Shown here: positions 16,493 through 36,571 of the stretch, in pieces
Numbering within the stretch: the first letter of the stretch is position 1
Layout of the letters: each line of letters opens with the position of its first letter
NCBI GenBank assembly: GCA_050950105.1
Contig: JBMNGZ010000008.1
Coordinates: 121,416 to 185,415 of the forward strand
Source: Candidatus Hydrogenedentales bacterium
GTDB lineage: Bacteria; Hydrogenedentota; Hydrogenedentia; Hydrogenedentales; SLHB01
DNA length: 64,000 bases
Direction: 5' to 3'
Notes under the pieces: model-generated
Told to the model about the DNA's origin: nothing
Database searches by the model: none
Seen by the model: the letters and a program-made list of their open reading frames with translations, nothing else
Made by a program: the position numbers and the translations under genes

Positions 16493-16563
16493 GTTCCTGA
16501 CGCCGGAAAATTGATCGTGGCCTCTGGCGGAAAAGGGTCTCGAACGCGAAAACGGAGCAGAGA

Positions 16564-18912: not shown

Positions 18913-18927
18913 TCGGGAGCGCCCCAA

Positions 18928-20073
18928 ATGAAATTTGAGTCTTTCAAGTCCGGCAGTTGGAAACAGCAGTACCAGTACAAGAGTTTTCAGCCGGCACGGA
19001 TCAATGAGGAATGGTCCTGGGATGACCCCCGAATCAACGTGCTGCTGGAAAAGGCCACCAAAGCTCTGGGAGAGTTGAACGCCTTCACGTTGATCGTACC
19101 CGATGTGGATCTTTTCATTCACATGCACATCATCAAGGAGGCTAACACCTCCAGCCGTATCGAGGGCACCCGCACTGAGATGGACGAGGCCGTGCTTGAT
19201 GAGGCGGCTATTCGTCCTGAACGCCGCGACGACTGGCGCGAGGTGCGTAACTATGTGCAGGCCATGAATAGCGCGATTGACGAACTACAGCGACTGCCTC
19301 TGTCCATGCGCCTGCTTCGCAATACCCATGAGATCCTTTTGAGCGGGGCCAGGGGGGAGCGCAAGGCTCCCGGTGAATTTCGGCGCAGTCAGAATTGGAT
19401 TGGTGGCGCTTCTCTATCTGATGCGGCTTTTATCCCGCCCCATCCTGACGATCTTCCTGACCTGCTGACAGATCTTGAAGCTTTCTGGCATAACGACAGC
19501 GTCCATGTCCCACACCTGGTACGATGTGCCCTCAGCCACTACCAGTTTGAAACCATTCATCCCTTTCAGGATGGCAATGGCCGTATCGGCCGCCTGCTCA
19601 TCACGCTGTACCTGGTCAGTCACGGTCTGCTGAACAAGCCTTCTCTCTACCTGTCCGCCCATCTGGAGAAGCATCGGGGAGCCTACTATGATGCCCTGAC
19701 GCGGGTTCGGGAGTCCCATGATATTGGCCAGTGGGTACGTTTTTTTCTCCAGGCAGTGATCGAGACTGCTGAAAACGGAAAGCAGACCTTTGAGCGTATT
19801 TTGGCTTTGCGTCAGGAGGTGGATGCTCAAATCGTGACTTTGGGACGTCGGGCGGAAAATGGCCACGTTCTGATGCGACGTCTTTACCAGGAACCGGCTG
19901 TGAATGTAAATCAGGTGGCAGATCTGCTTGGGATTAAATATTATGCGGCCAATCAGCTGGTGGGGGCTTTGGTTGACCTTGGGATTCTGCAGGAAATGAC
20001 GGGCTGGCAACGAAACCGGCTTTTTGTCTTCCGCAGGTATCTGAATGTTTTTCGCGATGAAAATGCAACATAA
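18928..20073 (+). CDS. Fic-family protein with C-terminal HTH
   Basis: Fic motif HPFQDGNGRIGR, SSRIEGT, PGEFRRSQNWIGG. Confidence 0.93.
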   Translation: MKFESFKSGSWKQQYQYKSFQPARINEEWSWDDPRINVLLEKATKALGELNAFTLIVPDVDLFIHMHIIKEANTSSRIEGTRTEMDEAVLDEAAIRPERRDDWREVRNYVQAMNSAIDELQRLPLSMRLLRNTHEILLSGARGERKAPGEFRRSQNWIGGASLSDAAFIPPHPDDLPDLLTDLEAFWHNDSVHVPHLVRCALSHYQFETIHPFQDGNGRIGRLLITLYLVSHGLLNKPSLYLSAHLEKHRGAYYDALTRVRESHDIGQWVRFFLQAVIETAENGKQTFERILALRQEVDAQIVTLGRRAENGHVLMRRLYQEPAVNVNQVADLLGIKYYAANQLVGALVDLGILQEMTGWQRNRLFVFRRYLNVFRDENAT

Positions 20074-20172
20074 AATATCTTGTTGTGCATTTGGGGGCTT
20101 AAAACACAATAAGAATCCGTTTGTTCTCTTTTTTGTATCACAACGCATCACCGTCGGCTAAATTTGCGGGAG

Positions 20173-23160
20173 ATGAATGTGAGTTACTTCAACGAAGAAA
20201 ACACGATTGAACAGCTCGTGCTGGACACGCTGTCTGACAGGGACAATCAGTGGTGCGTTGCCGAGCCGCAAGCTGATTATCTCGATTCCCACCTCAGTCT
20301 TCAGATTTCAAACCTCCGCTGGCGATTTGCGCCCGCGGAATCCTTGCCGCGCCCGCATTCCGACGTGCTGGTGGAGTCGATGGTGCGCGACGCCCTCATC
20401 CGCCTGAACCCGGAAATCGAGGCCCAGCCCGACCGCGCCGACGAGGTGCTCTACCGCCTGCGGGCCATTGTGTTGTCGGTGCAGAGCGAGGGCCTGGTGC
20501 GGGCCAACGAACTCTTTGCCGAATGGCTGCGAGGCGAGAAATCCATGCCCTTCGGCGAGCGTGGCGAACATACGCCGGTACGCCTGATCGACTTCGAGAA
20601 TCTCAGCAACAACGATTACGTGGTCACCAACCAGTGGGTTTATCCGGTCAAGGAAGGCGGCCGCCGCTTCGACATTATCCTGCTGGTCAACGGCATCCCG
20701 CTGGTGATCGGCGAGGCCAAGACGCCGGTGCGCCCCGCGGTGACCTGGGTGGACGGGGCCAGCGACATCCACAACGGCTACGAACAGAGCGTGCCGCAGA
20801 TGTTTGCGCCGAACATTTTTTCCTTTGCCACCGAGGGCAAGTGCTTTCGCTACGGCTCGGTGCGCATGCCCATCGAGCTTTGGGGGCCCTGGCACGAGGG
20901 TGAAAACAAGGCCGAAGGGACGCTTGCAGACGTTCAGCGTTCCCTCCGCTCCATGCTGCGCCCCCATGTGGTGCTGGACATCCTGCAGAACTTCACCCTC
21001 TTCGCCACCGACAAGAAACACCGGCGCATCAAGATCATCTGTCGCTACCAACAATACGAGGGCGCTAACCTGCTGGTGGACCGCGTGGTCAAAGGTTTTC
21101 CGAAGAAGGGCCTGATCTGGCATTTCCAGGGCTCGGGCAAATCGCTGCTGATGGTCTTCGCGGCACAAAAATTGCGAATGCACCGCCGGCTGGGCAACCC
21201 CACAGTACTCCTTGTGGTGGACCGCATCGACCTGGACACCCAGATCACGGCCACCTTCAACGCCGCCGATATCCCGAACATGATCGGAGCGTCTACCCGG
21301 CAGGAGCTGCAAAACCTGCTGGCGGCCGATACCCGCAAGATCATCATCACCACGATTCATAAATTCGGCGAGGCGGACGGCCGCCTGAACGAGCGCTCGA
21401 ATATCATCGTCATGGTGGACGAGGCGCACCGCACCCAGGAAGGCGATCTCGGGCGCAAAATGCGAGAGGCGTTGCCCAGGGCTTTTCTATTTGGCCTGAC
21501 CGGCACGCCGATCAACAAACGGGACCGAAACACTTTCTGGGCTTTCGGCGCAGACGAGGATGAGCAGGGCTACCTGAGCCGCTACTCCTTCCAAGACTCA
21601 ATCCGAGATAAGGCCACATTACCACTGCATTTCGAAGCGGTGGATGTGAAACTGCGCATCAACAAGGGCGCTATCGACGAAGCCTATGCTGAAATCACCA
21701 ATGAGTTGAGTGAACTGGATCGCGACGACCTGGCCAGGCGTGCTGCCAAGATGGCGGTGTTGATTAAGGCTCCGGTGCGGGTGAACGCCATTTGTCAGCA
21801 CATCGTAAAGCACTTCCAGGAGAAGGTAGAACCGAACGGCTTCAAAGCCCAGGTGGTGACTTTCGATCGCGAGTGCTGCGTGCTCTACAAAAAGGCCATG
21901 GACGAATTGATCGATCCGGAGACCAGCCGCATCGTCATGCACGTCCAGGGCGGCAAATCGGACGAATATGCAGAATGGAAATTGAGCAAAGATGAGGAAG
22001 AAAGACTGCTGGATCGCTTCCGTGACCCTAACGATCCGCTCAATTTCCTGATCGTCACGTCCAAGCTGCTAACGGGTTTTGATGCTCCGATTCTGCAGGT
22101 GATGTATCTGGACAAGCCGATGAGAGATCACAACCTCCTGCAGGCCATCTGCCGTACCAACCGCGTTTATCCCGACAAGACGCACGGCCTGATCGTCGAT
22201 TATCTGGGTATTTTTGATGAGGTGGCCACAGCGCTCGATTTCGATGAAAAGGCGGTCCAGAAGGTCATCACCAATCTGGATGACCTCAAGAAAGAGCTGC
22301 CCGGCGCGGTTGCAAGCTGCCTGGCCTTCTTTCCTGGCGTAGATCGCACCGTGGGCGGCTACGAGGGACTCATCACGGCACAGGATTGCCTGCCCAATAA
22401 CGAGGCCCGGGACAGTTTTGCGGCCGAATTCTCGGTGCTATCCCAGCTGTGGGAGGCGCTGTCTCCCGATCCCTGTCTCGCCCCTCATGAAAAGGACTAC
22501 AAATGGCTCACTCAGGTCTATGTGTCGGTGAAGCCGCCCAGTGGCAATGGCAAACTGCTTTGGCACGCCTTGGGAGCGAAAACCATCGAATTGGTGCATG
22601 AGAATGTGCATCTGGAGATGGTGCGCGATGATCTGGAAACCCTGGTGATGGACCCTGAAATATTTGAAGAGCTGCTCGCTGCGAAAGATCCTGACAGGAA
22701 ATCCAGGGAAATAGAGAACAAGATAATTACCCGGCTCCGCAAACACCAGAACATTCCAGAATTCATCGCCCTGGGCGAACGCCTCGAAAAACTCAGAGAA
22801 CGGCACGAGCAGGGTCTGCTGCATAGTATAGATTTCCTCAAAGAGCTGCTGACCCTCGCCAAAGAGGTCGTTCAGGCCGAAAAACAGGCTAACCCTGCCG
22901 ATGAACAAGCCAAGGCCAAAGCGGCTCTGACCGAATTGTTCGCCGAGGTTAAGAATGCCAAAACGCCGGTGGTAGTTGAGCGGATCGTCACCGATATTGA
23001 CGAGATCGTCCGGCAGGTCCGTTTTCCCGGTTGGCAAAACACCAAGTCAGGGGAACGCGATGTACAAAAAGCCTTGCGCAGGGTGATTTACGTGAAGTAT
23101 CAGATCAAAGACCAGGATCTATTCGATAAGGCTTTTGGATATATACGTCAGTACTACTAG
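20173..23160 (+). CDS. hsdR: Type I R-M restriction subunit
   Basis: DIILLVNGIPLVIGEAK nuclease motif, WHFQGSGKS, DEAHR, TGTP, LLTGFDAP, QAICRTNR. Confidence 0.95.
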   Translation: MNVSYFNEENTIEQLVLDTLSDRDNQWCVAEPQADYLDSHLSLQISNLRWRFAPAESLPRPHSDVLVESMVRDALIRLNPEIEAQPDRADEVLYRLRAIVLSVQSEGLVRANELFAEWLRGEKSMPFGERGEHTPVRLIDFENLSNNDYVVTNQWVYPVKEGGRRFDIILLVNGIPLVIGEAKTPVRPAVTWVDGASDIHNGYEQSVPQMFAPNIFSFATEGKCFRYGSVRMPIELWGPWHEGENKAEGTLADVQRSLRSMLRPHVVLDILQNFTLFATDKKHRRIKIICRYQQYEGANLLVDRVVKGFPKKGLIWHFQGSGKSLLMVFAAQKLRMHRRLGNPTVLLVVDRIDLDTQITATFNAADIPNMIGASTRQELQNLLAADTRKIIITTIHKFGEADGRLNERSNIIVMVDEAHRTQEGDLGRKMREALPRAFLFGLTGTPINKRDRNTFWAFGADEDEQGYLSRYSFQDSIRDKATLPLHFEAVDVKLRINKGAIDEAYAEITNELSELDRDDLARRAAKMAVLIKAPVRVNAICQHIVKHFQEKVEPNGFKAQVVTFDRECCVLYKKAMDELIDPETSRIVMHVQGGKSDEYAEWKLSKDEEERLLDRFRDPNDPLNFLIVTSKLLTGFDAPILQVMYLDKPMRDHNLLQAICRTNRVYPDKTHGLIVDYLGIFDEVATALDFDEKAVQKVITNLDDLKKELPGAVASCLAFFPGVDRTVGGYEGLITAQDCLPNNEARDSFAAEFSVLSQLWEALSPDPCLAPHEKDYKWLTQVYVSVKPPSGNGKLLWHALGAKTIELVHENVHLEMVRDDLETLVMDPEIFEELLAAKDPDRKSREIENKIITRLRKHQNIPEFIALGERLEKLRERHEQGLLHSIDFLKELLTLAKEVVQAEKQANPADEQAKAKAALTELFAEVKNAKTPVVVERIVTDIDEIVRQVRFPGWQNTKSGERDVQKALRRVIYVKYQIKDQDLFDKAFGYIRQYY

Positions 23161-23278: not shown

Positions 23279-24838
23279 TCAGGCCTTTTGCGCCTCTTGC
23301 CTTTCCAGAAACTTCTGTACGGCTTGGGGAGAGATTCCCAGCAAGCGCGCCGCCTTGCTCTTGTTTCCGCCCGTAAACTCAAGCGCTTGAACAAAGAAGC
23401 GTTTTCGGGCTTCCTCCAAAAACGATTTGACGCAGAAGCCTTCGTGGGGCAGGGGAAACGTCTGCAGGGCGGCCTTTAGACTCTGGTCGCGCGAGAAGAC
23501 CACGTCACCGGCATCGATTACATCCCCTTTGGAAAACAGACACGACTGCGAAAGAACGTTGTGCAAGTCTCGCACGTTGCCCGGCCACGAGTGCTGTTGG
23601 AGTTTCCGTAATGCGCCCCGGGAGAGTTGTTTGGGTGTCCGCAACTGTTGGTTGATCCCGTCAAGGAGATGAAGCGCTATTCGCGGGATGTCACTGGGTC
23701 TCTCGCGCAGGGCGGGTATCTGCAGTTCCACCGAGGCCAAACGGTAATACAGGTCCTCTCGGAATTCCCGTTTCGCGGCTCGCTCCCGCAGATCCCGGTT
23801 GCTTGCGGCAACAATGCGGACATTGACTTTTTTGGCCTTTCTTGCACCGATGGGTTGGACCAGGCCGTCCTCCAGAACTCTCAGCAGTTTTACCTGAACA
23901 TCGAGCGGGAGTTCGCCCACCTCGTCCAGGAAAAGCGTGCCGTTGTCTGCGGTCGCGAACCTCCCCTCCTGGTCACGCACGGCTCCGGTAAAGGCCCCTT
24001 TGATATGCCCAAACAGAGTGCTTTCCGCGAGATCCTTTGGAATCGCGCCGCAATTCAGGGGAACGAATGGTGCGGTTACACGGTCGCTCAACATGTGAAT
24101 CAGGCGCGCGAGCAGTTCCTTGCCGGTGCCCGTCTCCCCGGAGATCAGCACCGTCAGCGTGCTCGCAGCCGCTATTCTCGTGCGCTCAAGTACCTCTATC
24201 ATCTGAGGATGGTCTCCGACGATCCCCAGTTTGGCACGTGCCGTGTGCAACGCGGAATCCGATGGCCTGGATACGTCTTCTGCGCCGCCCTGGCGTCGTG
24301 AACGGGCGGGCGGGCGCTCTCTGCGTGCCACGCTCTCTGCCCGCGGAGGGACGCCTTTTCCCATCTGGAAAAGGCTCTCCGGGTCCAGTTCCATTACCGG
24401 AGGCACGTCGTCCGTCACAAACCTTGGCGGACGCGCCTGCAGCAGTCGCACAGGAAAAGGAGTCTCATTCAAAAGCACCAGCCAGCACGCATGGATTTGC
24501 GGTGTCCCGGATGCCACGGAAACGAAGAAACTCGCTTTCGGAAAAGCTCGGCGCAGTTTGTCCAATTCGAGGCGCATCACGGCCAATATGGCACGGTAGT
24601 CCGTCGGGTCAGCCAGTGGTACGTCGCGAAGGTCTACGGCTATATGGGGAAAGCGCGTTTCCAACGCCTCGCACGTGTGCTCCGCGCTCTCTCGCATGCC
24701 AGGCGTACCAAACAGGACCACACGATCAAAGGCGCGGTGCCCAAGCACCGTGAGTACTGGTCCCGGCAGCTCGTCTCCTTCCAATACACCAAACGCATAG
24801 GGGTCGTGATTGCCTGTAAACGTCAATAAGATATCCAT
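23279..24838 (-). CDS. Sigma-54-dependent activator (bEBP) with N-terminal CARF/RtcR-like sensor domain
   Basis: Start MDILLTFTGNHDP (ATG 24838, gaggtg RBS). CARF-like GPVL, DPTDY and VSVASGTPQ. AAA+ GETGTGKE, intact GAFTGA, FLDEVG, FREDLYYRL. Fis HTH GNKSKAARLLGISPQAV. Confidence 0.88.
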   Translation of the reverse strand: MDILLTFTGNHDPYAFGVLEGDELPGPVLTVLGHRAFDRVVLFGTPGMRESAEHTCEALETRFPHIAVDLRDVPLADPTDYRAILAVMRLELDKLRRAFPKASFFVSVASGTPQIHACWLVLLNETPFPVRLLQARPPRFVTDDVPPVMELDPESLFQMGKGVPPRAESVARRERPPARSRRQGGAEDVSRPSDSALHTARAKLGIVGDHPQMIEVLERTRIAAASTLTVLISGETGTGKELLARLIHMLSDRVTAPFVPLNCGAIPKDLAESTLFGHIKGAFTGAVRDQEGRFATADNGTLFLDEVGELPLDVQVKLLRVLEDGLVQPIGARKAKKVNVRIVAASNRDLRERAAKREFREDLYYRLASVELQIPALRERPSDIPRIALHLLDGINQQLRTPKQLSRGALRKLQQHSWPGNVRDLHNVLSQSCLFSKGDVIDAGDVVFSRDQSLKAALQTFPLPHEGFCVKSFLEEARKRFFVQALEFTGGNKSKAARLLGISPQAVQKFLERQEAQKA

Positions 24839-24887
24839 GTTCACCTCGGGTCTGATTCGGGAACTCCCCCCCGACCTTCTCATCATC

Positions 24888-24921
24888 CAACCTTGGTTGA
24901 GGAATTTCAACCCGGGTTGAA
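24888..24921. promoter_or_regulatory. Two palindromic CAACC-N2-GGTTG sites, candidate upstream activator sequences
   Basis: caaccttggttg (24888-24899) and perfect palindrome ttcaacccgggttgaa (24906-24921). Centres are 20 bp apart. Confidence 0.65.
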
Positions 24922-24973
24922 GCCAGGATTTGCCCGTTTCCACAAAGAGCCATTCCGGGAGGCACTTTTCGCG

Positions 24974-24990
24974 TTGGCATGCGGCTTGCT
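24974..24990 (+). promoter_or_regulatory. Sigma-54 (-24/-12) promoter facing cas10
   Basis: TTGGCATGCGGCTTGCT matches YTGGCACG-N4-TTGCW at all but one specified position. GG-N10-GC spacing is exact. Confidence 0.8.
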
Positions 24991-25158
24991 GAACCTCTGT
25001 TGCATAACTACAATGGGCATGGATGCCGCGCATGGTATACGCAGCGATGGTCGCAGCTAGCAGACATCATCCATGCAGGCCCTGGCGGGGGGCTTTATCC
25101 GATTGCTCAACAGGCCTTTCTCGATCAGCAGGGTCGCAAGTGACATACGGAGGGTTGT

Positions 25159-27606
25159 ATGGACACCAAGCTTGAACGTCTGGCGACGGCCGCGCTGCTC
25201 CACGATATTGGGAAGTTCTGGAGCAGAACGGGAGCACCCAGGCCATTCACAGAACAGGAAGCGGCCCATTTCAGTGGCTCCTGGCAGTATGCGCTCTGGA
25301 CCGGCCAGTTCGTGGAACAATATCTCGAGGATGCCGAACTTGCCGCCTGGGCCAGGATGCACCATTCGCCTGATTCTATCGAATCCAGCATCATCTCCCT
25401 GGCCGACTGCTTGTCTTCCGGAGAGCGGAGGCTGGACGATACACAGCAGACCGGCGCGCCCGAATCCGCGCCACTGGTAAATATTCTCAGCTGTCTGCGA
25501 ATTTCGGAGGAACAGCCGGAGTGCGCGCCGCGAAGCGTGCTGCCGTTGTCTCAGCACGGGGATTTTGAGGCAGCGTCGCTCCCTCTGTCTGCCGAGACGA
25601 CGCTTTCAAAGGACGATTACGGTGCGCTCTGGAAGGCATTTTCGGCGCAGGCTGAATGCGCCGGGCGGCGGCCTCTGCGCCACAGCACCTGGCTGGCGCT
25701 GATCCGCCGCTTTTGTTCGCGCATACCGGCAGCCACGCCTACCCGCGTGGGCGCGTGGATACCGGACATCAGCCTCTACGACCATGCACGCACCACCGCT
25801 GCCATTTCGGCGTGCCTTTATGCCCAAGGCCTATCGGAGGCGAAGGTATCGGAACTGCGGACCGCCCTCAGCAGCAGGAAAGCAGGCCACCCGGTTCTAG
25901 CCGAACCCATCTGCCGCCTCATTTGCGGAGATTTGTCCGGGATACAGCAATTTCTCTACACCATCGCCACGAAGCATGCCGCCAAAACCCTTCGTGGCCG
26001 TTCTTTCGCGCTGCAGCTTGTTGCCGAGGCCTGTGCCCTCTACCTCTGCGAACAGGCGGGCGTGCCGGAATGCTGCATCCTCTACAACGGCGGGGGACGG
26101 TTTTACGCCTTGCTACCCGTGAAAACCGACGTCCAGGCCATGGCAGATTGCCTCAGCGAGCGGGTTCATGCGGCCTTTGAGGGCCGTTTGTCGATGCATC
26201 TGGGTGATGTAGCGGTTACTCCATCAGATTTTCAGGCGGGCCGGTTCTCGCAGCTCTGGGCTGCCGCCGGGCGGGCGGCAACGGCTGAGAAAGCGCGCAA
26301 ATATACGATGCTGGCCCGCAACGACTACGACGCGGTGTTTGGGTTCCAGGATCAGGGGGGAGAAACGTCCAAATGCTCCGTATGCGGCGCGGAAGGCAAA
26401 CTTCAGCCCTACGAGGCGGATATCGAAGTTTGTGAGGACTGCGCCGAATATGAGGAACTCGGCAGGCATCTCCCGTACGCCCAATGGCTGGTCCGGAGCG
26501 CTCCCACGGACCGTTCAAGTGCGCTCCACAGATTTTTTAACACGCTCGGCTGCGATTATACGATCGCCGTCAAAGCCGAGGAGGTACAGCGTCTGGACGC
26601 CTGGGAAATCACGCAGTTGAACGGTTTTGACATCAAGGGGCTCGAGGCATTGAGGCCTCCGTCCAACTGCGCATTGAACTACCGGCTCACCGCGCGCGCC
26701 TGGCCTCGCGACAATAGCGGAAGCGTCCTGACCTTTGAGGAGATGGCGGCACAGGCCCGCGGCACGAAGAAGCTTGGCGTTTTCCGGGCGGACGTGGATA
26801 ACCTGGGCGCGCTGTTCAGCCTGGGCCTGGGCGACGGCGCCACCATGAGCCGGGTGGCGGCGGTCAGCACCCTGCTGTCCGACTTTTTTGAGGGATACCT
26901 CCATCACCTGGTGGATACGGAGTATGCGAATACCGTGGGCGTGGTCTTTGCCGGGGGCGACGACCTCTTTGTCGTGGGCGCGTGGGACGATATATTTGAT
27001 TTTGCCGTGCGGCTGGGCCGGGATTTTGATACCTATACCGGTGCGAACCCCGATCTCACATTCTCAGGGGGAATCGTCATCGTAGACGATCATCTCCCGA
27101 TACGCTATGCCGCCCAGATGGCTGCGAACGCCGAGGAAACCGCAAAATCCTATTCGCGTGGCGGGCGTGAAAAAAATGCCCTCACGCTGTTTGGCACTCC
27201 CCTCGGGTTCGAGGAATTGCCGGCGTTCACCAGTTTCAAAGAGCTGCTGCTTGACACGTTGGCCCCCGCAGATGGGCCCGGCGTGCCCAAATCGTTTCTG
27301 CGGCGGCTCTTCGACATCTGGGAAGCCTATCTGCGCGAACGGAAAATCATCGACCGGCGTGTCCGAGGGCGCGATCCAACGCTCGAGACCGCCAAGGCCG
27401 AGGCGCGCTGGCAACGCTGGCGCTGGCTGCTCGTGTATGGCATCCGCAAATTCGCGAAGAGTTGCTCCGAACGGAGCGCCGAAATCAAGGAAGTTCAACG
27501 GCGCCTGCTGGAACCGTATGAAGGGAAACTGTCAATCGAGGATCGGCTCGGCGTGCCCCTGCGGTGGGTCGAGCTGCTAACGAGGGAGGAACGTCGGGAT
27601 GAGTGA
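25159..27606 (+). CDS. cas10: Type III-A CRISPR Cas10/Csm1
   Basis: HD motif ALLHDIGK, DISLYDH, GDLSGIQQFLY, LRGRSF, CxxC..CxxC, ADVDNLG, intact Palm2 FAGGDDLF. Confidence 0.96.
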   Translation: MDTKLERLATAALLHDIGKFWSRTGAPRPFTEQEAAHFSGSWQYALWTGQFVEQYLEDAELAAWARMHHSPDSIESSIISLADCLSSGERRLDDTQQTGAPESAPLVNILSCLRISEEQPECAPRSVLPLSQHGDFEAASLPLSAETTLSKDDYGALWKAFSAQAECAGRRPLRHSTWLALIRRFCSRIPAATPTRVGAWIPDISLYDHARTTAAISACLYAQGLSEAKVSELRTALSSRKAGHPVLAEPICRLICGDLSGIQQFLYTIATKHAAKTLRGRSFALQLVAEACALYLCEQAGVPECCILYNGGGRFYALLPVKTDVQAMADCLSERVHAAFEGRLSMHLGDVAVTPSDFQAGRFSQLWAAAGRAATAEKARKYTMLARNDYDAVFGFQDQGGETSKCSVCGAEGKLQPYEADIEVCEDCAEYEELGRHLPYAQWLVRSAPTDRSSALHRFFNTLGCDYTIAVKAEEVQRLDAWEITQLNGFDIKGLEALRPPSNCALNYRLTARAWPRDNSGSVLTFEEMAAQARGTKKLGVFRADVDNLGALFSLGLGDGATMSRVAAVSTLLSDFFEGYLHHLVDTEYANTVGVVFAGGDDLFVVGAWDDIFDFAVRLGRDFDTYTGANPDLTFSGGIVIVDDHLPIRYAAQMAANAEETAKSYSRGGREKNALTLFGTPLGFEELPAFTSFKELLLDTLAPADGPGVPKSFLRRLFDIWEAYLRERKIIDRRVRGRDPTLETAKAEARWQRWRWLLVYGIRKFAKSCSERSAEIKEVQRRLLEPYEGKLSIEDRLGVPLRWVELLTREERRDE

Positions 27607-27964
27607 GTTCGCAATAGCCGTAGAAAAGGGCATCGACAATACCTTCGTCAAGTGGGCCGACGGATTTGGACAGAGTATTGCCCGCGGCGTCACGACCAGC
27701 CAGATCCGCAACATCTTCGGCAGTGTTAAAAAGCTCGAGATGAGCGGAGACCTCGACCTGCCGCAATTGCTGCTGCTGAAACCCAAAATCGCCTATGCAC
27801 GGCAACGAACCAGAGGATTGGCGCCGCTGGCAGACCAGCTCACGTCGGCCATCGATGCGGTCGATGCCGCCAGCGACCCGGCCGGTAAACAGGAACGTTT
27901 CCAGCGCTTCTGCCAAGGGTTCGAAGCCATTCTTGCCTACCATCGCGCGCATGGCGGCAAATAA
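27599..27964 (+). CDS. csm2: Type III-A small subunit Csm2
   Basis: TTSQIRNIF, LLKPKIAYA, FEAILAYH. Confidence 0.93.
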   Translation: MSEFAIAVEKGIDNTFVKWADGFGQSIARGVTTSQIRNIFGSVKKLEMSGDLDLPQLLLLKPKIAYARQRTRGLAPLADQLTSAIDAVDAASDPAGKQERFQRFCQGFEAILAYHRAHGGK

Positions 27965-27982
27965 GCCAGGAGGGGTGACATC

Positions 27983-28753
27983 ATGACGGAATTGAGACAT
28001 ATCGGACGAATCAAGATTTCAGGGCGTATCGAGGCCCTTACCGGGCTGCATATCGGAGGGACCGAGGTCGGGCTGGCGATCGGCGGGGCCGACAGCACCG
28101 TGGTGCGCAACGGTCTGGACGGCCGGCCCTACATTCCCGGCTCGAGCCTGAAGGGCAAGATGCGCTGCCTGCTGGCGCGCGTGTACACCCCCGGCAGGCT
28201 CGAGGACCCGCGCGGCAGCAGATTCCCGCGATTGTTCAAAGTGACCAGCAGAGAGGAATACGAGGATCCCTCGAAGTCTTTCCTCTTTCACATCTTCGGC
28301 GTGACGCCCGAGGAAATTCGCAAGCTCGAGGGGGAAGCCCTTCCCACGCGGCTTATCGTGCGCGACGCCATGATGACCGATGAAACCGCCGAGGCCCTCG
28401 AACGGAGCCTCTACACCGACATGCCCATGACGCAAGTGAAAACGGAAGTGATTATCGACCGCATCACCTCGCAGGCCACGCCCCGACAAATGGAGCGCGT
28501 GCCTGCCGGCGCCCAGTTCGCTTATGAACTGGTCTTCAACGTGTTCTTTGAGTCCGACCTCGCGTTTCTGCCGTATGTGGCGGAAGCGATGGATCTGCTC
28601 GAGAACGACTATCTCGGCGGGCAGGGCTCCCGCGGCTATGGCCAGGTGCAGTTCACAACCTGTCAGGTGGATGTCGTGTCGTTTAATGGCGTCGATCTGG
28701 CCGCGAAAAACGAGGTGGCGGCCTTCAGGCAAACCGTGGAACGCGGAGTGTAA
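27983..28753 (+). CDS. csm3: Type III-A Csm3 (Cas7)
   Basis: TGLHIGG, IGGADSTVVR (catalytic Asp present), PYIPGSSLKGKMR, ERVPAG, YLGGQGSRGYG. Confidence 0.95.
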   Translation: MTELRHIGRIKISGRIEALTGLHIGGTEVGLAIGGADSTVVRNGLDGRPYIPGSSLKGKMRCLLARVYTPGRLEDPRGSRFPRLFKVTSREEYEDPSKSFLFHIFGVTPEEIRKLEGEALPTRLIVRDAMMTDETAEALERSLYTDMPMTQVKTEVIIDRITSQATPRQMERVPAGAQFAYELVFNVFFESDLAFLPYVAEAMDLLENDYLGGQGSRGYGQVQFTTCQVDVVSFNGVDLAAKNEVAAFRQTVERGV

Positions 28754-28758
28754 GCGCC

Positions 28759-29763
28759 ATGGAAATCTATCGCGTGCACATCCGGCCCAGGGCGCCCTTT
28801 TTCAATGGGCCCCACAGCCGCGCGCCCAAAACGGGGGCGTTGGTCCATTCCGACACGTTGCATGCAGCCTTGGTGAGCGTCGCGGCCATGCACGGCTCAC
28901 CCCTGCTCAAACGCGCGGAAACCCTGCGGGTCTCGTCGCTGTATCCGAGCTGGGGGGGAGTCTGCTTCCTGCCGAAACCGTTTTTGCGTCCTCCCGGCGA
29001 AGAGGGGGCGAGCAATCCGCTCGAACGCAAACGATGGAAGACGATCCGGCTGGTCTCTGAAGGCATGCTTACGGCGTGGCTCGCTGGCGCCCTCGAGGAA
29101 TCGCAATTGGCCTCGGAAGCCCCGGCCGGGTGCGCCCTGCTGCAGGATGAGCTGCCCACGGGAGCGCCCGTGCCTCGCGCGCTGATGGCGGAGGAGATTT
29201 CGGCGGCCGTCGCCGTTGACCGGCACGGTGCGGGCACGATGCCCTTCGATCGCCGCGGATTGCGCGTCAACACCGGTGAAGGGTGCGGTGCGTATTTTCT
29301 CGCCGAGCTGGAGGACGCCGAATCCGGCCCATTTCGCGCTCTGGCCGACCACCTGGGCGAGCAAGGGCTGGGCGGGGAACGCTCGGTCGGCTACGGCCGC
29401 TTCGAGGTCGCATCGTGTGAGCCCGTTGGCGGCACATTGTTCGCGACGCACGGCGCTGCCGATGCCTTCCTGACCCTGAGCCTCTACCTGCCCACGGAGG
29501 AGGAAGTCGCGGCGGGAGCGCTCGAGGCGCCCGCGGCCTACGATTGCACCGTGCGCGGCGGATGGATACACAGCGCGGGCGGCACGACCCAGCGAAAGCG
29601 CTCGCTCCGCATGTGCGTTGAAGGCGGCGTCTTCAAAAAAATCTCCGGCCGGCACGGTGACGTGCGCAACACGGCCCCTGCCTCTTTTACGAGGCATCCC
29701 GTCTACCGTTCCGGCTTGGCCTTCGAACTCCCGTTCCAGTTCAAGGAGGGTATCCACTCATGA
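28759..29763 (+). CDS. csm4: Type III-A Csm4 (Cas5)
   Basis: HSDTLHAAL, VSSLYP, FLPKP, GLGGERSVGYG, RGGW, HPVYRSG. Confidence 0.92.
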   Translation: MEIYRVHIRPRAPFFNGPHSRAPKTGALVHSDTLHAALVSVAAMHGSPLLKRAETLRVSSLYPSWGGVCFLPKPFLRPPGEEGASNPLERKRWKTIRLVSEGMLTAWLAGALEESQLASEAPAGCALLQDELPTGAPVPRALMAEEISAAVAVDRHGAGTMPFDRRGLRVNTGEGCGAYFLAELEDAESGPFRALADHLGEQGLGGERSVGYGRFEVASCEPVGGTLFATHGAADAFLTLSLYLPTEEEVAAGALEAPAAYDCTVRGGWIHSAGGTTQRKRSLRMCVEGGVFKKISGRHGDVRNTAPASFTRHPVYRSGLAFELPFQFKEGIHS

Positions 29764-31010
29764 GTACCAGTCGTCAAATCCAGGGTCATTTCGTATTGAC
29801 CCCCATCAGCCCGGTGCACATCGGCTCGGGCGAGATCCTCCAGGGGCTCGACTATACTCTGCGCGGCGACCAGTTTGCCGTCAAGGATGTCCTGGCCTTT
29901 TTCGAAGCCCACAAGGACAATACGAAATATGCCCTCGACGCCGTCGAGACCGGGCTCGACATCGGCGAAGACTACGTCCGGTACCGGATTCCGGCCTGCG
30001 CCGAGCCAGCGAGAAAAAAGCGAGGTCCACAGCGCGGCGGACCGCCCCGAAAAGACCAACCCTTTCTTGAAGGAAGGAGACCTCGGGGGCGAAAGACCAA
30101 GATGGACGCTCAAATGGCGAAGCTCCAGCGCCAGTCGGCTAGAAAGTATGGCGCGTCGCAGACCCCGAAAAAGCCTGACCCGCAGTCGGATGGGGGCGGC
30201 GGGGAGGTGCGCGCGTTCATCAAAGACCCCTTTGGCCAGGTGTTTTTCCCGGCCACGTCCTTCAAGGGCACCGTGCGGACCGCCCTGGCCTGTCACCTGG
30301 CCGAACAGGCTCCCGATGCATTCGCAGCCGCCCTGCGCGGGGTCGGGCGGCAGCGCAGGCAGAGCCCGGCATTTCAGCCCATCAAAGACGCCCTGTTTGG
30401 AAGAAGTGCCCATGAAGACCTGCTCAAGGCTCTGCGCATCCAGGACTCCCAGCCTCTGGCCCCGGAGGCCTGCCTCTTTTTGGCCCAGGTCAAGGTCATG
30501 AATGTTTTCCGCGGGCGGTTCAGCGAGAAACGCGGCGTGCCGATCCAGGCCGAATGCCTTGTGCCGGGAACGAATGGCATTCGGCTGCCGTTCCAGATCG
30601 ACCGGTTCGCGCTCGAGCGAGACCATGCGCTCAAACGCCCCCTCAAGGGCACGGGCGCGGCCCTCCTGCAGGACCGCGCCGCCTTCGAACACGCCTTGCG
30701 CGCTCATGGAGCGGCCCTGGCCCAGTACGAAAGCGATTTCTATGCCGGCCAGAACGAAACCCGCGCCCAACGCTTCTTCCAGAACCTCATCGGCAGCCAA
30801 CACATCCATCTGCCCGTCGGTTTTGGAACGGGCTGGCACACCAAGACCGTTGGCCGTCTCATCCCGGAGAGCGATCTCGCAAGACTACGCGAGAGAGGCG
30901 TCCTGAAGCGCCCGGCTGCGGCCATTTTTCCCAAAACACGCAAATGGGCCCGCTGTAAAGAAGGAGAGCTGCCTATGGGATGGCTCAAGGTCGCCATCGA
31001 ATGGAAATAG
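29760..31010 (+). CDS. csm5: Type III-A Csm5 (Cas7-like)
   Basis: TPISPVHIGSGE, FIKD, PATSFKGTVRTAL, LRIQDS, VGFGTGWHTKT, FPKTR, PMGW. Confidence 0.9.
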   Translation: MSTSRQIQGHFVLTPISPVHIGSGEILQGLDYTLRGDQFAVKDVLAFFEAHKDNTKYALDAVETGLDIGEDYVRYRIPACAEPARKKRGPQRGGPPRKDQPFLEGRRPRGRKTKMDAQMAKLQRQSARKYGASQTPKKPDPQSDGGGGEVRAFIKDPFGQVFFPATSFKGTVRTALACHLAEQAPDAFAAALRGVGRQRRQSPAFQPIKDALFGRSAHEDLLKALRIQDSQPLAPEACLFLAQVKVMNVFRGRFSEKRGVPIQAECLVPGTNGIRLPFQIDRFALERDHALKRPLKGTGAALLQDRAAFEHALRAHGAALAQYESDFYAGQNETRAQRFFQNLIGSQHIHLPVGFGTGWHTKTVGRLIPESDLARLRERGVLKRPAAAIFPKTRKWARCKEGELPMGWLKVAIEWK

Positions 31011-31265
31011 AAACCACGGCCGAAGATTGAAAATACAGCTCATTGCACCTTCAATCTTCGAATCGGTATAACTGAAGAAACCAAAAGGAGTTGCAGACAA
31101 TGAACAAGCTAAATGCCCCGCCAGGAGGGCCTCAATCGGCGTATATCGGGCCGATCTTCGCCCGAATTTCCGAGAAATGCCGAAACCCTTGTGCCCAAAC
31201 GCTTTCTCTGCCCCAAGCGCCCCCAGGAGTCGACCCCGTTGCCCAAAAAAACCAGGAAAAAGTCT
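31011..31265 (+). promoter_or_regulatory. Putative CRISPR leader
   Basis: Non-coding, A-rich stretch next to the first perfect repeat. The degenerate repeat is at the opposite end. Confidence 0.6.
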
Positions 31266-32175
31266 GTTGAAGAAGATGACCTGATGAAGAAGGGATCGAA
31301 ACAATGAGTGCATATGCCACTTCACTTTCCGCTTCAGTTGAAGAAGATGACCTGATGAAGAAGGGATCGAAACTCCAGAAGGAATCTAAGCCTTTCCATG
31401 GCCTCGATGAGTTGAAGAAGATGACCTGATGAAGAAGGGATCGAAACCGATTGACCCCGACAACGACAAGACCGGGTATTAGGTTGAAGAAGATGACCTG
31501 ATGAAGAAGGGATCGAAACTGATTTTATTTAACGTTCTTTTGAATTGGAACAGGACGTTGAAGAAGATGACCTGATGAAGAAGGGATCGAAACTTATTCT
31601 CGAACGCTATCGCTTCTTCGTAATACAGACTGTTGAAGAAGATGACCTGATGAAGAAGGGATCGAAACACGTATTGTGCCAATTTCTCATGGAACACCAC
31701 CCATGTTGAAGAAGATGACCTGATGAAGAAGGGATCGAAACTGGAACCCCTTCAGAATGTTGGGGTTCTTCGCATCGGTTGAAGAAGATGACCTGATGAA
31801 GAAGGGATCGAAACGTTGTCACGAACACACGTTTTGCTACGCGTACCTGCAGTTGAAGAAGATGACCTGATGAAGAAGGGATCGAAGCCTCTCCAATTCT
31901 TTCCATTTCCGAATGGAGAAGGACTGTTGAAGAAGATGACCTGATGAAGAAGGGATCGAAACGCATCCAAATCTTCCAGTGTTTCAGCCTTGAAATGCGT
32001 TGAAGAAGATGACCTGATGAAGAAGGGATCGAAACTCGAGGCCCACAGCATCGGGATTCTCGATCTCCAGCAGTTGAAGAAGATGACCTGATGAAGAAGG
32101 GATCGAAACCCACCAGCGCGGGCCCTCGTCCCAGTCTTGCACGGCCGTTGAAGAAGATGACCTGATGAAGAAGGG
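31266..32175 (+). CRISPR. CRISPR array: 13 repeats (last degenerate), 12 spacers of 34-38 bp
   Basis: 37-bp repeat GTTGAAGAAGATGACCTGATGAAGAAGGGATCGAAAC starting at 31266, 31337, 31411, 31483, 31557, 31632, 31705, 31778, 31852 (ends GAAGC), 31926, 31999, 32073 and 32147 (truncated). Confidence 0.99.
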
Positions 32176-32325
32176 GTGCGTGGACAATCGCAGTGCGGGT
32201 GGATGGGGACATAGGGGCTGGTGGTTTTTGTGCAGTTGGGCCTGGCATGTACCTCTCCCGGGATGGAGGAGCAGGTGCTGGAGCCGTGTCTGGTTTGCCG
32301 GGTGCCCGAGCCGGAGGGCGTGCAT

Positions 32326-32457
32326 ATGGAGCTTCTGCTGACGGAATACGGGGCGAAGCTGGGCAAGCGGGGAGAATGCCTGGTGGTGAAGCGTGCCAAG
32401 GGGCCGGATGTCGAAGTTGTGGCGGAGGATGTGACGTCGGTGGCCGGACTCTGGTAG
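32326..32457 (+). pseudogene. cas1: Truncated cas1 N-terminus (43 aa)
   Basis: ggagg RBS, then MELLLTEYGAKLGKRGECLVVKR..EVVAEDV, which resembles the first beta strands of Cas1, then a stop. Confidence 0.7.
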
Positions 32458-32494
32458 GGGCGCGGGTTTCACACGTTAAAGGGGTACAGGTCCT

Positions 32495-33922
32495 ATGAAG
32501 ATATGTCTCATCGCAAACGTGGGTAAGCGGGATTTGCAGCTGGACGGCGCCCCGCTGCCTGCCAAGGGAGAAGGCGGCCTTCGTGGGCAGGCTGCCGCGC
32601 TTCTGAAGGACTACGACACGGTCCGGGAGCGTCTCAGTGCGCCGATGATTTTGCCCGCGCTGGGACGGATCTTCCGGCTGAGAGCGGAACGCATCGCGGC
32701 GCTCCTGCTGGTGGCGACCGACCAGGAAGATGAGGCTTTTCGAGGCGGAGACACCATTGAATGCGCTGAAGTGCTGAAACGGTTCGTGTTCGACCAGTGC
32801 TCGCGAGGGAAGGCGCCGGAAAAGAAGCAGCTCACGCAAGAACCGATTGTGGTACGGATTTCCGAGGCCCCTCACCAATACGACCGCATGGCGGATTTTT
32901 ATCGGAAGAAAATAGTCACGGAGAAAGCGTTGCGCGATGCGGATTGCGTATATCTCTTGTGCGCGGGCGGCACCCCGGCATGCAATACGGCCTTGCTTCT
33001 CGCGGGCGTGGCGCGGTTTCGGGAGAAGTGCGAGGTGCTCAACGTGGACGAAGGGACCGGCACCGTCGGGCTATTGAGCATCGGGCGGGAGATGCTCGAC
33101 GGGTACCGCAGAGAAGCGCGGGGCCGCCTGCTCGAGCGCTGGGATTTTGACGCCATCGCCTGCGATCCTGCCTACGACACAACCCTGCGCCAGGTGGCCG
33201 AGGCTGCGGAAGCCCGGCTGAACTTCGATTTTGAGCGCCACGAACGGCTTGTCGCGGATTTGGCTCCCACCGAGGCCCGGCACCGGCGCGACTTGGATGC
33301 CCTGGACGTGGAGGCCCAATACCTGACGAAACTTTGCGACGAAGCAAAGCTTTTGCAGGAACTCTTTTGGAATGCTCATGTCAAATGGCAGCGGAACGAA
33401 TGCGCGGATTTTCTGGGGCGGGTGTGGCGCTTGTGCGAGGCGGCGTTGTACCGCGTTGTGGGCCAGATCACGGGGCTTAAATTTGACGGCACGCGTAAAT
33501 CCGAGGTGTGTTTTGAGCGCTGGGCATCCGCCCAGAGCGGGCTGATGGAATGGGTGCAAAAAGAGATGCGGCAGCCTCAGGTCGCGCTCCGGCCAAATAC
33601 CGAAATTCTGCAACATACCCTGACTTATATGATTCAGCCGGAGAATCTTTCGCGCTTTCCTGCGGCGCCCCCGGAACTGGGCGAGATTGCGCGCCAGGTT
33701 AAAGCGCTGTACAGAGCGCGCGGACTTCGCAATAAGTCGATTATCGCCCACGGCTATCAGGGCTTATCAAAGGAAGGCATCCGCAAAGCACTTGGAAACG
33801 ACGAGACGAGCCCTTTCGAAACCTTACAGAGACTCCTGGAAGCCCAGGGTGTTGCCATCAACGACAATCCTTTTGATCGCTATGCGAAACTCATACGCGC
33901 GCTCGATAAGGACGGTGCCTGA
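32495..33922 (+). CDS. CARF-HEPN ancillary ribonuclease (Csm6/Csx1-like)
   Basis: CARF-like LIANVGKRD, ATDQ...DT, LCAGGTPA. C-terminal HEPN motif RNKSIIAHG. Confidence 0.82.
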   Translation: MKICLIANVGKRDLQLDGAPLPAKGEGGLRGQAAALLKDYDTVRERLSAPMILPALGRIFRLRAERIAALLLVATDQEDEAFRGGDTIECAEVLKRFVFDQCSRGKAPEKKQLTQEPIVVRISEAPHQYDRMADFYRKKIVTEKALRDADCVYLLCAGGTPACNTALLLAGVARFREKCEVLNVDEGTGTVGLLSIGREMLDGYRREARGRLLERWDFDAIACDPAYDTTLRQVAEAAEARLNFDFERHERLVADLAPTEARHRRDLDALDVEAQYLTKLCDEAKLLQELFWNAHVKWQRNECADFLGRVWRLCEAALYRVVGQITGLKFDGTRKSEVCFERWASAQSGLMEWVQKEMRQPQVALRPNTEILQHTLTYMIQPENLSRFPAAPPELGEIARQVKALYRARGLRNKSIIAHGYQGLSKEGIRKALGNDETSPFETLQRLLEAQGVAINDNPFDRYAKLIRALDKDGA

Positions 33923-34923
33923 TGTTTGAAGAACTCACCGCCACAAAGCAGCGCGTGACCTTTCGTGTTCTGGAACCGCTTGTTCTGCCCGAATACAAGG
34001 GGGCAACGTTTCGTGGGGCTCTCGGATTTGCGTTCAAACGAATCGCCTGTGCGTTGCCCCGGAAGACCTGCGACACGTGCCTGCTCCGCGAACGCTGCGC
34101 CTACAGCGTGTGTTTCGAAACCCCCGTGCCGGCCGGGTCCGAAACCATGCGTAAATACCCCTTCGCACCGCATCCCTTTGTGCTCGAGCCTCCTGTGGGC
34201 GGGCGACGCAGCTACCAGCCCGGAGAGGAACTCGCACTCAATCTGTGCCTGGTCGGCCGGGGAAATGACTATCTCGCTCACTTCATCTATGCCTTCGAGG
34301 AAATGGGCAGCCAGGGCCTCGGACGAGACCGCGCGAAATGCGAGCTGGGAACCGTGGTCTCGACTGCAGCTCAGGAAAAGCCGATCTATGATCATGCGAA
34401 ACAGTCTTTTGTCGGCGAAACAGACCGGATCTCCGCAACCGACATAATCGCCCGTGCAGAGGATTTTATCGACATCCCCATCCGCATCGTTTTTGAGACC
34501 CCGACGCGCGTGAAGTCGAGGGGAAACCTCACGGATTCGCCCGATTTGGGCGTGTTGTTCCCGGCACTGCTCCGGCGCTTGAATTCGCTCAATTATTTTC
34601 ATTGTGGCGGGCCCAGCGATGTTGATGTGAAGCCTGTGCTTGAGGCAGCGCGGGCGACCGAAGTGGAGCGGAGCGATGTGCAATGGATCGACTGGGATCG
34701 CTACTCCGGGCGGCAACAACGGCGGATGAAATTGGGCGGATTTGTCGGGACTGTGGATTACCCGCCGCTGGACCCGGTATTGCTTCCCGCGCTGCTCTGG
34801 GGAGAACTGCTGCATATGGGCAAAGCCAGCGCCTTTGGCCTGGGGAAATTTCGCCTCGAAAAACGCCAGGCCAGGAGGACCGCTCAGGCTCCGGGATTCA
34901 ACGACTGCGCGAACAGCGCCTGA
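33922..34923 (+). CDS. cas6: Cas6 crRNA-processing endoribonuclease
   Basis: GATFRGALG, CDTCLLRERCAY, PHPFVL, ETPTR, RYSGRQ, Gly-rich loop HMGKASAFGLG. Confidence 0.93.
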   Translation: MFEELTATKQRVTFRVLEPLVLPEYKGATFRGALGFAFKRIACALPRKTCDTCLLRERCAYSVCFETPVPAGSETMRKYPFAPHPFVLEPPVGGRRSYQPGEELALNLCLVGRGNDYLAHFIYAFEEMGSQGLGRDRAKCELGTVVSTAAQEKPIYDHAKQSFVGETDRISATDIIARAEDFIDIPIRIVFETPTRVKSRGNLTDSPDLGVLFPALLRRLNSLNYFHCGGPSDVDVKPVLEAARATEVERSDVQWIDWDRYSGRQQRRMKLGGFVGTVDYPPLDPVLLPALLWGELLHMGKASAFGLGKFRLEKRQARRTAQAPGFNDCANSA

Positions 34924-34975: not shown

Positions 34976-35407
34976 TCAGGTCCGGGCGTGCCCGTTAATC
35001 CAAGCGTCCACGGCATCGATATCGTAACGAATCAGGCGGCCGATGCGGACATAAGGCGGCATCCCGCCATGTTCCCCACGGTCTCCATTCACCCGGCTCT
35101 TTCGCAGGTATTGACGGCTGACTCCCAAATACTCGGCGGCTTCTTTCTCGGATAGCAGCTTCTTGCAGGGAAGCGTCTCAGGGCTGTTTCCAAGTCGCAT
35201 TTGGGGTGAAGGCGGTTCCGCAGGAATTGAGTTCTTCTCCAGGGCCGTACATTCGCCACACCAGTCATGAGAGCCTGTTACAACCCAGGCAACTTCATCA
35301 CCAAGAGGAAGGTTCCTCGGCGTGGCACGCGGAGGATATCTCCGGCATTCCCCAAGGCCGCTTCGCAGCACGTTCCAACAGGCGCAAACTGAACATGTAT
35401 GACTCAT
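34976..35407 (-). CDS. Excisionase/AlpA-like HTH protein with Cys-rich N-terminus
   Basis: LLSEKEAAEYLGVSRQYLRK...PPYVRIGRLIRYDIDAVDAWI. N-terminal CSVC..CRRYPP..DWCGE. Confidence 0.7.
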   Translation of the reverse strand: MSHTCSVCACWNVLRSGLGECRRYPPRATPRNLPLGDEVAWVVTGSHDWCGECTALEKNSIPAEPPSPQMRLGNSPETLPCKKLLSEKEAAEYLGVSRQYLRKSRVNGDRGEHGGMPPYVRIGRLIRYDIDAVDAWINGHART

Positions 35408-35528
35408 TGCTAAGTTCGCCCTTCGGCGCAGGGCCAAAATGCGCGATGGTTGGATATTTCGGGCGCGAACACTCTGTGAATACGGCTGGTCGCGAGCAGT
35501 GAAAACTGTGTGCCGCGGGCAGCGGGTA

Positions 35529-36410: not shown

Positions 36411-36486
36411 TGGAGCTGGAGGGGGGAATCGAACCCCCGACCTCATCATTACGAGTGATGCGCTCTGCCAACTGAGCTACTCCAGC
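36411..36486 (-). tRNA. tRNA-Thr(CGT)
   Basis: Reverse complement GCTGGAGTAGCTCAGTTGGCAGAGCGCATCACTCGTAATGATGAGGTCGGGGGTTCGATTCCCCCCTCCAGCTCCA; 76 nt, CCA end. Confidence 0.97.
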
Positions 36487-36495
36487 AAAAAAAAA

Positions 36496-36571
<76 letters not shown>

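Follow-up and report, generated by a model that had tools for sequence, protein, structure and literature searches.

Type III CRISPR-Cas systems are costly and can kill or arrest their own cell, and how their expression is restrained is little understood. Promoters of the sigma-54 type are nearly silent without an activator, and a sigma-54 activator with a CARF domain ahead of cas10 would for that reason allow interference only upon induction by a nucleotide signal. The closest described proteins are the RtcR-like activators of Makarova et al. (2014), a family that combines CARF, NtrC-like AAA+ and helix-turn-helix (HTH) domains, often adjoins restriction-modification (R-M) genes, and was predicted to act through sigma-54 in response to infection-derived ligands; in its treatment of CARF families, the same paper lists the RtcR-like one among those that as a rule do not lie near cas genes (PMC4012209). 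Bell et al. (2024) describe RtcR homologues at the head of CoCoNuT, type I R-M and Druantia superoperons and propose cyclic-phosphate RNA as their ligand (PMC11090510), and sigma-54 activation of the neighbouring defence genes is predicted in both papers. For RtcR itself, the CARF domain is described as keeping the protein inactive until its ligand binds (PMC7790460). Here, we analysed a 64,000-nucleotide stretch of the genome of a Candidatus Hydrogenedentales bacterium (contig JBMNGZ010000008.1, positions 121,416 to 185,415; this whole stretch is hereafter the window), in which a type III-A operon lies head-to-head with the gene of a CARF-AAA+-HTH protein. We consider it probable, at roughly 0.78, that the operon is driven by a sigma-54 promoter which the divergent CARF activator would open, and that it is probably switched on only upon a signal.

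The activator (Table 1) was originally described as an enhancer-binding protein with a CARF/RtcR-like N-terminus, an intact GAFTGA loop and a Fis-type HTH, and Pfam matches and motifs bear this out. Sigma54_activat (PF00158) matches with 221 bits and the Fis-type HTH_8 with 33 bits, and the Walker A (GETGTGK, residue 234), GAFTGA (residue 281) and Walker B (DEVGE, residue 305) motifs of the AAA+ domain are all intact, as is typical of bacterial enhancer-binding proteins, to which the HTH adds cognate upstream sites that are predicted and shared with the family. The N-terminal domain is matched by the RtcR profile (27.7 bits, cut-off 23.1) and, below the cut-off, by Cas_Csm6_CARF (19.4 bits). 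When an AlphaFold2 (AF2) model of residues 1-156 (predicted local distance difference test, pLDDT, 89; predicted template-modelling score 0.86) was compared by Foldseek, the top match was the Csm6 CARF domain of PDB entry 6tug (Enterococcus italicus, bound to cyclic hexaadenylate, cA6; E 2.8e-9). PDB matches at E <=0.001 numbered 46, the approximately 30 listed matches were all CARF proteins, and the top template-modelling scores were 0.75-0.79; as modelled, the N-terminal domain has the fold of the CARF superfamily, the fold that had been suspected. BLASTP detected no similarity between this domain and the Csm6 of the window. The combination of CARF, NtrC-like AAA+ and HTH domains outside rtc loci and next to defence genes is that of the RtcR-like activators of 2014, whose habit of heading their operon in the same direction is not shared by the divergent gene of the window. 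Sigma-54 itself is encoded in the genome, as an rpoN frame of 481 aa on contig C4 (Sigma54_DBD, 212 bits).

The activator gene and cas10 are separated by 320 bp (24839-25158). The original prediction had the locus and the length of this gap right, whereas its start at 24839 is one base off frame, the open reading frame (ORF) being 23279-24838. It had also reported a near-consensus sigma-54 promoter pointing at cas10, which we find as the box TGGCATGCGGCTTGCT, with GG and GC 10 nt apart within TGGCAC-N5-TTGCW, 54 bp past the second of two palindromic sites and 169 bp ahead of the cas10 ATG. The box is the sole exact match to TGGCA-N6-TTGCW within 64 kb; 0.40 such matches are expected per window and therefore about 0.001 in a 320-bp gap on the right strand, and the only two other sites of the window that score >=10/12 both lie elsewhere. 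The palindromic sites (24886-24921) were recognised through comparison with homologous loci and, like the 13-repeat CRISPR array inside the operon, were absent from the original prediction. At <=2 mismatches, 0.22 palindrome matches are expected per window, and the tandem pair is unique in the 4.62-Mb assembly. A simple consensus scan of the gap returned no sigma-70-like site facing cas10 and a single one on the other strand, against 0.4 expected in shuffles (weak evidence), which may be a possible autoregulated promoter of the activator itself.

The operon downstream of the box has the composition of type III-A, with a Cas10 that carries HD and GGDD motifs, Csm2 to Csm5, a CRISPR array, Cas6 and a Csm6 effector, and cas1 was found solely on other contigs. 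In Cas10, the HD motif is at residue 15, two CxxC pairs mark a zinc finger, and the GGDD motif of the Palm, at residue 599, is as intact as had been claimed. The proposed CARF-HEPN effector is likewise recovered: profiles match the Csm6-like protein weakly (TIGR02672 36.7 bits, cut-off 150) and phmmer found no match among PDB sequences, but a fold search with its AF2 model (pLDDT 92) placed the Csm6 structures of E. italicus, Streptococcus thermophilus and Thermus thermophilus first, and its homologues carry PF09659 and PF09670. The array is taken to run in the direction of the cas genes because its degenerate last repeat is at the 3' end. No sigma-70-like site was found in the array leader or ahead of csm6, nor any sigma-54-like site ahead of the array and csm6 down to 8/12 matches.

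Table 1. Coordinates of the activator, the intergenic sites, the type III-A operon and the neighbouring genes in the window
Feature	Position	Strand	Evidence or remark
CARF-AAA+-HTH sigma-54 activator	23279-24838	minus	519 aa; Pfam, NCBIfam, motifs, AF2 fold
Activator CARF domain (residues 1-156)	24371-24838
Activator AAA+ domain (residues 206-372)	23723-24223
Activator HTH (residues 483-507)	23318-23392
Sigma-70-like site (possible promoter)	24882-24910	minus	TTGAAA-17-GATGAT, 9/12; faces activator gene, overlaps palindromes
Upstream activator site 1 (predicted)	24886-24901		TCCAACCTTGGTTGAG; 2 mismatches to TTCAACC-N2-GGTTGAA
Upstream activator site 2 (predicted)	24906-24921		TTCAACCCGGGTTGAA; perfect palindrome, exact match to family motif
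Sigma-54 -24/-12 box (predicted)	24975-24990	plus	TGGCATGCGGCTTGCT; 11/12 consensus positions; faces cas10
cas10/csm1	25159-27606	plus	TIGR02578, 565 bits
csm2	27599-27964	plus	NCBIfam equivalog above cut-off
csm3	27983-28753	plus	NCBIfam equivalog above cut-off
csm4	28759-29763	plus	NCBIfam equivalog above cut-off
csm5	29760-31010	plus	NCBIfam equivalog above cut-off
CRISPR array	31266-32183	plus	13 repeats of 37 nt, GTTGAAG...ATCGAAAC; between csm5 and csm6
csm6-like CARF-HEPN ribonuclease (predicted)	32495-33922	plus	RNKSIIAH at residue 412
cas6	33922-34923	plus	PF10040, 57.5 bits
DUF3987 gene	10766-11410
hsdM genes	13003-14733 and 14954-16492		N6_Mtase match
YhcG/DUF1016 PDDEXK nuclease	16564-17598		YhcG_C match
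hsdS	17595-18803		Methylase_S match
Fic-domain gene	18928-20073
hsdR	20164-23160	plus	SWI2_SNF2 236 bits, HSDR_N 95 bits; tail-to-tail with activator gene
HTH_17 gene	34976-35437
Two tRNA genes	36414-36571

The activator belongs to a family whose N-domain relatives form approximately 75 clustered proteins of about 500 aa with the same architecture. A metagenome scan with a four-sequence N-domain alignment returned 473 relatives, of which the best 80 loci were analysed; an activator gene was called in 77 of them, and flanking sequence reaches >=3 kb on one side or both in 49 of the 77. An alignment of eight N-domain sequences proved too divergent as a query for the metagenomes, and a scan of genome contigs with the full-length alignment kept 80 loci of which 76 were unrelated sigma-54 activators, drawn in by the generic GAFTGA pattern, so only L005 and L007-L009 were used from it. 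In the dominant layout the activator is followed after about 110 bp by a sigma-54 box, a 94-aa ORF resembling staphylococcal nuclease (SNase) and type I hsdR-hsdM-hsdS, often with an AAA_15/DUF3696 ATPase after the R-M genes. Among 77 family rows, the context is R-M in 28, a VWA system in 11, type III in six, AAA_15 only in four, ARPP in one and something else in seven, and is too short to call in 20. The family is not CRISPR-specific: tblastn with the window proteins found no cas10 or csm genes near the activators of the 80 metagenome loci, and hidden Markov models built from five Cas10 and five Csm3 sequences matched none of these loci. A box of >=10/12 on the same strand and <=300 bp past the activator stop codon is present at 47 of the 62 assessable metagenome loci (those with a complete gene end and >=200 bp downstream), where the background is 0.0078 per 300 nt, and the activator is co-directional in all 47. 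Most of these 47 cassettes, read by eye, have a tandem TTCAACC-N2-3-GGTTGAA between stop codon and box. As palindromes and box are common to the family, the window carries the family's control cassette, a compact device of one activator, two 16-bp sites and one box which, as it precedes many R-M and other defence operons, points to a widespread family of regulators.

Several side observations concern these cassettes. A second operon type with the same activator and box (L113:1074-10930 and ten further loci, e.g., L117, L124, L152, and L161) encodes, in order, the SNase-like ORF, a VWA protein, three proteins without Pfam match, an ATPase of the FtsK/HerA type (about 1060 aa) and, last, a Card1-like CARF nuclease, with no recognisable cyclase among them. 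The 94-aa first gene after the box (L103:10281-10565, L135, L141, and most R-M cassettes) has the pattern IDGDT...VRP.GYDAPE, and its sole Pfam match, to staphylococcal nuclease, is weak (E 0.0096). An ARPP-1 phosphatase or an HNH protein is encoded in other contexts. A protein combining ARPP-1 with a dual-specificity phosphatase (L097:2283-3311, L101:8280-9821) lies behind the activator at one of these loci and is divergent from it at the other, and the activator of L097 is the closest relative of the window activator (58% identity over 497 alignment columns). Finally, in 43 distinct metagenome cassettes the 20-nt segment around the box could pair with the Shine-Dalgarno sequence and start codon of the first gene, some 40-60 nt downstream. 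The best duplex spans both elements in 32 of the 43, with a mean energy of -16.8 kcal/mol against -8.5 for the 20-mer 40 nt upstream; relative to shuffled boxes the mean z is -1.2, and <=5% of shuffles are as low in 16 of the 43. A transcript reading through from a co-directional activator gene would include the box, which could then cover the ribosome site; one starting at the box would lack the masking sequence.

Within the phylum, the activator is often found next to csm genes. Among 135 genomes sampled, 15 have an N-domain match at E <=1e-10 and 17 a Csm1 above the curated cut-off; two of the latter (G026 and G121) were left out of the count because cas10 runs off the contig. An activator directly adjoins the csm genes at 8 of the 15 assessable type III-A loci (G000, which is the window, and G032, G084, G097, G098, G100, G101, and G102), while none was found in the 1.3-6.7 kb of upstream sequence at the other seven (G010, G022, G029, G042, G054, G079, and G128). 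Such pairs occur in the phylum and at none of the 80 metagenome loci, mostly with co-directional rather than divergent activators (G032, G097, G098, G100, G101, and G102). Five of the seven loci other than the window have a TGGCA-type box about 45 bp ahead of cas10, among them G032, G097, G100, and G102, with those of G097 and G102 below the threshold or degenerate at -12; the closest candidate in G098 has a terminal GA at -12, and no box was found in G101. The G084 locus is spread over two short contigs, which suggest, if joined as we suppose, an activator flanked by two boxes, one facing csm6-cas6 and the other, of 12/12, facing cas10. Two further members of the phylum (G059 and G078) have the activator ahead of type I R-M genes. 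Weak Cas10-palm matches of about 500 aa in G078, G134, and contig C9 of G000 were not counted as Cas10; the Pfam palm model also matches in E. coli, which suggests GGDEF cross-matches, and they were dropped on this ground.

Phylogenetic analysis (IQ-TREE, LG+G4, quick search, with SH-aLRT branch support; 78 rows, rooted on E. coli RtcR) placed the activators as follows. True RtcR orthologues (58% identity), which occur in other genomes of the phylum, are outgroups. The window activator falls inside a large clade linked to R-M, VWA, and ARPP contexts, as sister to the ARPP-linked protein (support 99), and the four type III-linked g42 proteins form a clade of their own (SH-aLRT 99) outside it. 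The starred branches require the type III label to have changed at least twice, so that the link between activator and type III arose at least twice. The rows of the window and of G032 are long-branched, and their exact places in the tree are uncertain. The association with type III-A is genuine yet tied to the lineage, and the type III-A locus of the window appears to have captured an R-M-type cassette.

Several findings weigh against a sigma-54 switch at this locus. The simple sigma-70 scan is insensitive, so that a constitutive promoter may be present alongside the sigma-54 promoter. At the 10/12 threshold, 15 of the 62 assessable family loci have no box, and in three g42 loci the box is below threshold or degenerate at -12. 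The closest Cas10 relatives, in G022 (54%) and G042 (53%), have no activator upstream. Compared with the family layout, the gene of the window is inverted, its sites lie about 35 bp nearer the box, and the SNase-like gene is missing (it is absent from the type III-linked cassettes, and tblastn did not find it in the window); these three departures make the junction a rearrangement that could be recent.

Such departures raise the question of whether the adjacency is an accident of island shuffling, the activator being either part of the type I R-M block or a leftover, and the cas genes being driven by an unrecognised constitutive promoter. The inverted activator does abut hsdR, in four metagenome loci a similar hsdR immediately precedes the activator, and the region as a whole forms an island next to two tRNA genes. 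Nevertheless, we judge this distinctly improbable: the palindromes and the box lie between activator and cas10, the box faces cas10 and not hsdR, hsdR ends rather than starts at the activator, every part is intact, and seven other genomes of the phylum pair activators, from other clades, with csm genes.

We return to the probable sigma-54 switch. All parts are present and intact, the cassette is conserved and the type III-A link recurs; binding by the activator, dependence on sigma-54, the ligand and the reach of the transcript are inferred. The activator would bind at both palindromes (about -65 and -85 relative to the box), and its oligomerisation would need the CARF ligand, as in RtcR, which becomes constitutive when its CARF domain is deleted. 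The sigma-54 promoter would then drive cas10-csm2-5, with the transcript probably extending over the array within the operon, csm6, and cas6, and the operon would be near-silent until a nucleotide-type signal of infection or RNA damage arrives. This signal would be an RNA-derived molecule with a ribose-phosphate group of the cyclic-phosphate or cyclic-oligoadenylate-like kind, not necessarily made by Cas10; once expressed, Csm3, Csm6, and Cas10 products could feed back on the sensor.

Two readings of the ligand have to be weighed. The first follows the original prediction in that the CARF domain would bind a cyclic oligoadenylate (cOA) made by Cas10; the ligand would probably be cA6, and a little basal Csm complex meeting its target would raise the transcription of its own operon, in a positive feedback that acts as a bistable alarm. 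We regard this loop as possible but doubtful. By sequence, the N-domain profile finds only cA6-binding Csm6 in the PDB (6tug, E 2e-7; 8pcw, 2e-4), and 6tug is also the best fold match. In E. italicus Csm6, sensing of cA6 is described as needing Asn10, Thr114, and Gln116, while Thr39 contacts the base (PMC7101355). Asn10, Thr39, Thr114, and Gln116 align with N10, T45, T112, and Q114 of the activator; across 44 homologues, T45 and T112 never vary and Q114 hardly does. The retention of these residues in the pocket favours a cOA-like ligand. The family's pocket motifs (GxHDP, STP, DPTDY, and SGTPQ(M/I)HACW; GNHDP and SGTPQIHACW in the window) differ from those of true RtcR (GTxLD and TGTHVAQ), the Csm6 of the window also matches cA6-type Csm6 best by E-value, and the second operon type of the family ends in a Card1-like CARF nuclease. 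However, cas10 and csm3 are near none of the 80 metagenome loci, and the genome of an R-M-linked member, G059, which is 98% complete, has no Cas10 palm match at all, so that a Cas10 product cannot be the ligand of every family member. The loop would also be hard to ignite because a sigma-54 promoter gives little basal expression. Further, this pocket in Csm6 accommodates the A3>p cleavage product too, and as this is a cyclic-phosphate product, the conserved residues cannot separate cOA from cyclic-phosphate RNA.

Alternatively, the activator may sense 2',3'-cyclic phosphate RNA ends as RtcR does, on RNA fragments produced by phage or host ribonucleases early in infection, and the type III-A operon would be one of several under a general alarm. 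RtcR is the only Pfam family above its cut-off in the N-domain, a signal independent of the controlled system fits a family that precedes unrelated systems, no prior Csm expression is required, and the same ligand is the one put forward for the RtcR homologues in PMC11090510. On the other side, true RtcR is a distant relative (2.7 substitutions per site along the connecting branch), the NF038308 score is 322 of the required 650 bits, and the RtcR motifs are missing. We would place this reading somewhat short of even odds, with cyclic-phosphate RNA slightly ahead of Cas10-made cOA as ligand. A wider proposal, rather unlikely in our estimate, is that the whole family consists of cOA-responsive transcription factors, probably for cA6, which would provide type III-A feedback in the window and a nucleotide alarm for R-M, VWA-FtsK-Card1 and other operons elsewhere; if true, the family would act as a hub, gated by sigma-54, through which second-messenger immunity is coupled to transcription across entire defence islands.

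Close relatives of the locus occur elsewhere. An hsdR-activator-cas10 arrangement with approximately 99% identity occurs on metagenome contigs from digesters, bioreactors, leachate, and landfill, which represent close strains and add little. The locus was found in no RNA run with raw reads, and one run labelled RNA-Seq is probably DNA. Two other metagenome runs show, at window positions 31302-32146, an array of one different spacer between two repeats, which may be an assembly collapse of the repeats, and in the same two runs the array and csm6 are separated by an additional stretch of about 1.2 kb (window 32442-32459). The closest database relatives of the activator and the Csm6-like protein are P0003 (70% identity) and P0079 (67%), respectively; both entries give 19,524 bases for the longest contig, so a related organism may carry another pair of such an activator with a type III locus.

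On the side of the activator away from cas10, the type I R-M block (13003-23160), which ends in hsdR, is context and not part of the switch. Together with the CRISPR locus and the DUF3987 and HTH_17 genes, it makes up the island adjoining the two tRNA genes. A 1426-aa open frame at 6112-10392 has no Pfam match at E <=0.001. The sole RtcB match of the genome, on contig C2 (125836-127145), is split over two frames that overlap by a few bases, which could be a frameshift or an assembly error. A second sigma-54 activator of the same genome (contig C10:593578-595131; L095:8578-10131, minus strand) resembles the window activator weakly in its N-domain (27% identity, E 1.7e-4); next come a TGGCATGGGGTTTGCA box, a DUF2130 gene, one for an AAA_15/DUF3696 ATPase, and an unknown gene.

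Compared with known regulators, the window activator shares with RtcR of E. coli and Salmonella, which activates rtcBA, the order of CARF, AAA+, and HTH domains, a dependence on sigma-54 that is presumed here, and a position divergent from its operon. It differs from RtcR in sequence (31% identity over residues 79-426; NF038308 322.4 bits, where the equivalog cut-off is 650), in the absence of adjoining rtcB or rtcA genes (the only RtcB match is on contig C2, and tblastn found none near the gene) and in its pocket, which has neither the GTxLD nor the TGTHVAQ motif of E. coli RtcR and its 58%-identical orthologue. The Csm6 proteins of E. italicus and S. thermophilus are the best sequence and fold matches of the CARF domain and have the motifs G-N-x-D-P and S-G-T-P-Q in common with it; however, identity is about 23%, and the output is a sigma-54 AAA+ activator with HTH rather than a HEPN ribonuclease.

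Csa3, other CARF-HTH regulators of CRISPR loci and the CalpL-CalpT-CalpS sigma-factor cascade work by way of sigma-70-type promoters or an extracytoplasmic function (ECF) sigma factor, and none of them is known to use a sigma-54 AAA+ motor. What they share with the window activator is the transcriptional output of a type III-linked nucleotide sensor (PMC11229360). The only experimental hint that we found of activator control of cas genes comes from Nla28 of Myxococcus xanthus, an enhancer-binding protein whose confirmed targets are reported, in a preprint, to include CRISPR-associated genes (10.1101/2021.11.28.470282); unlike the window activator, it is a starvation-induced protein of the response-regulator type without a CARF domain.

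The nearest comparison remains that with the RtcR-like activators of R-M and CoCoNuT operons. For the parts of the literature at hand, we found no report of palindromes or a box for RtcR-like defence activators and none of such an activator adjoining type III genes, which supplementary tables or the 2020 CARF/SAVED classification may nevertheless list. The novelty claimed originally was overstated: RtcR-like CARF proteins ahead of R-M systems were predicted to be sigma-54 activators in 2014 (PMC4012209), and again for CoCoNuT/R-M superoperons in 2024 (PMC11090510). The window activator has the same domain order, palindromic sites, and sigma-54 box as these relatives and is nested in the R-M clade, whereas the operon that it would control is of type III-A, its gene is divergent and the SNase-like first gene is absent. 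It is a variant placement of a previously predicted kind of regulator, in which the new part is the type III-A operon, together with the sites and the box.

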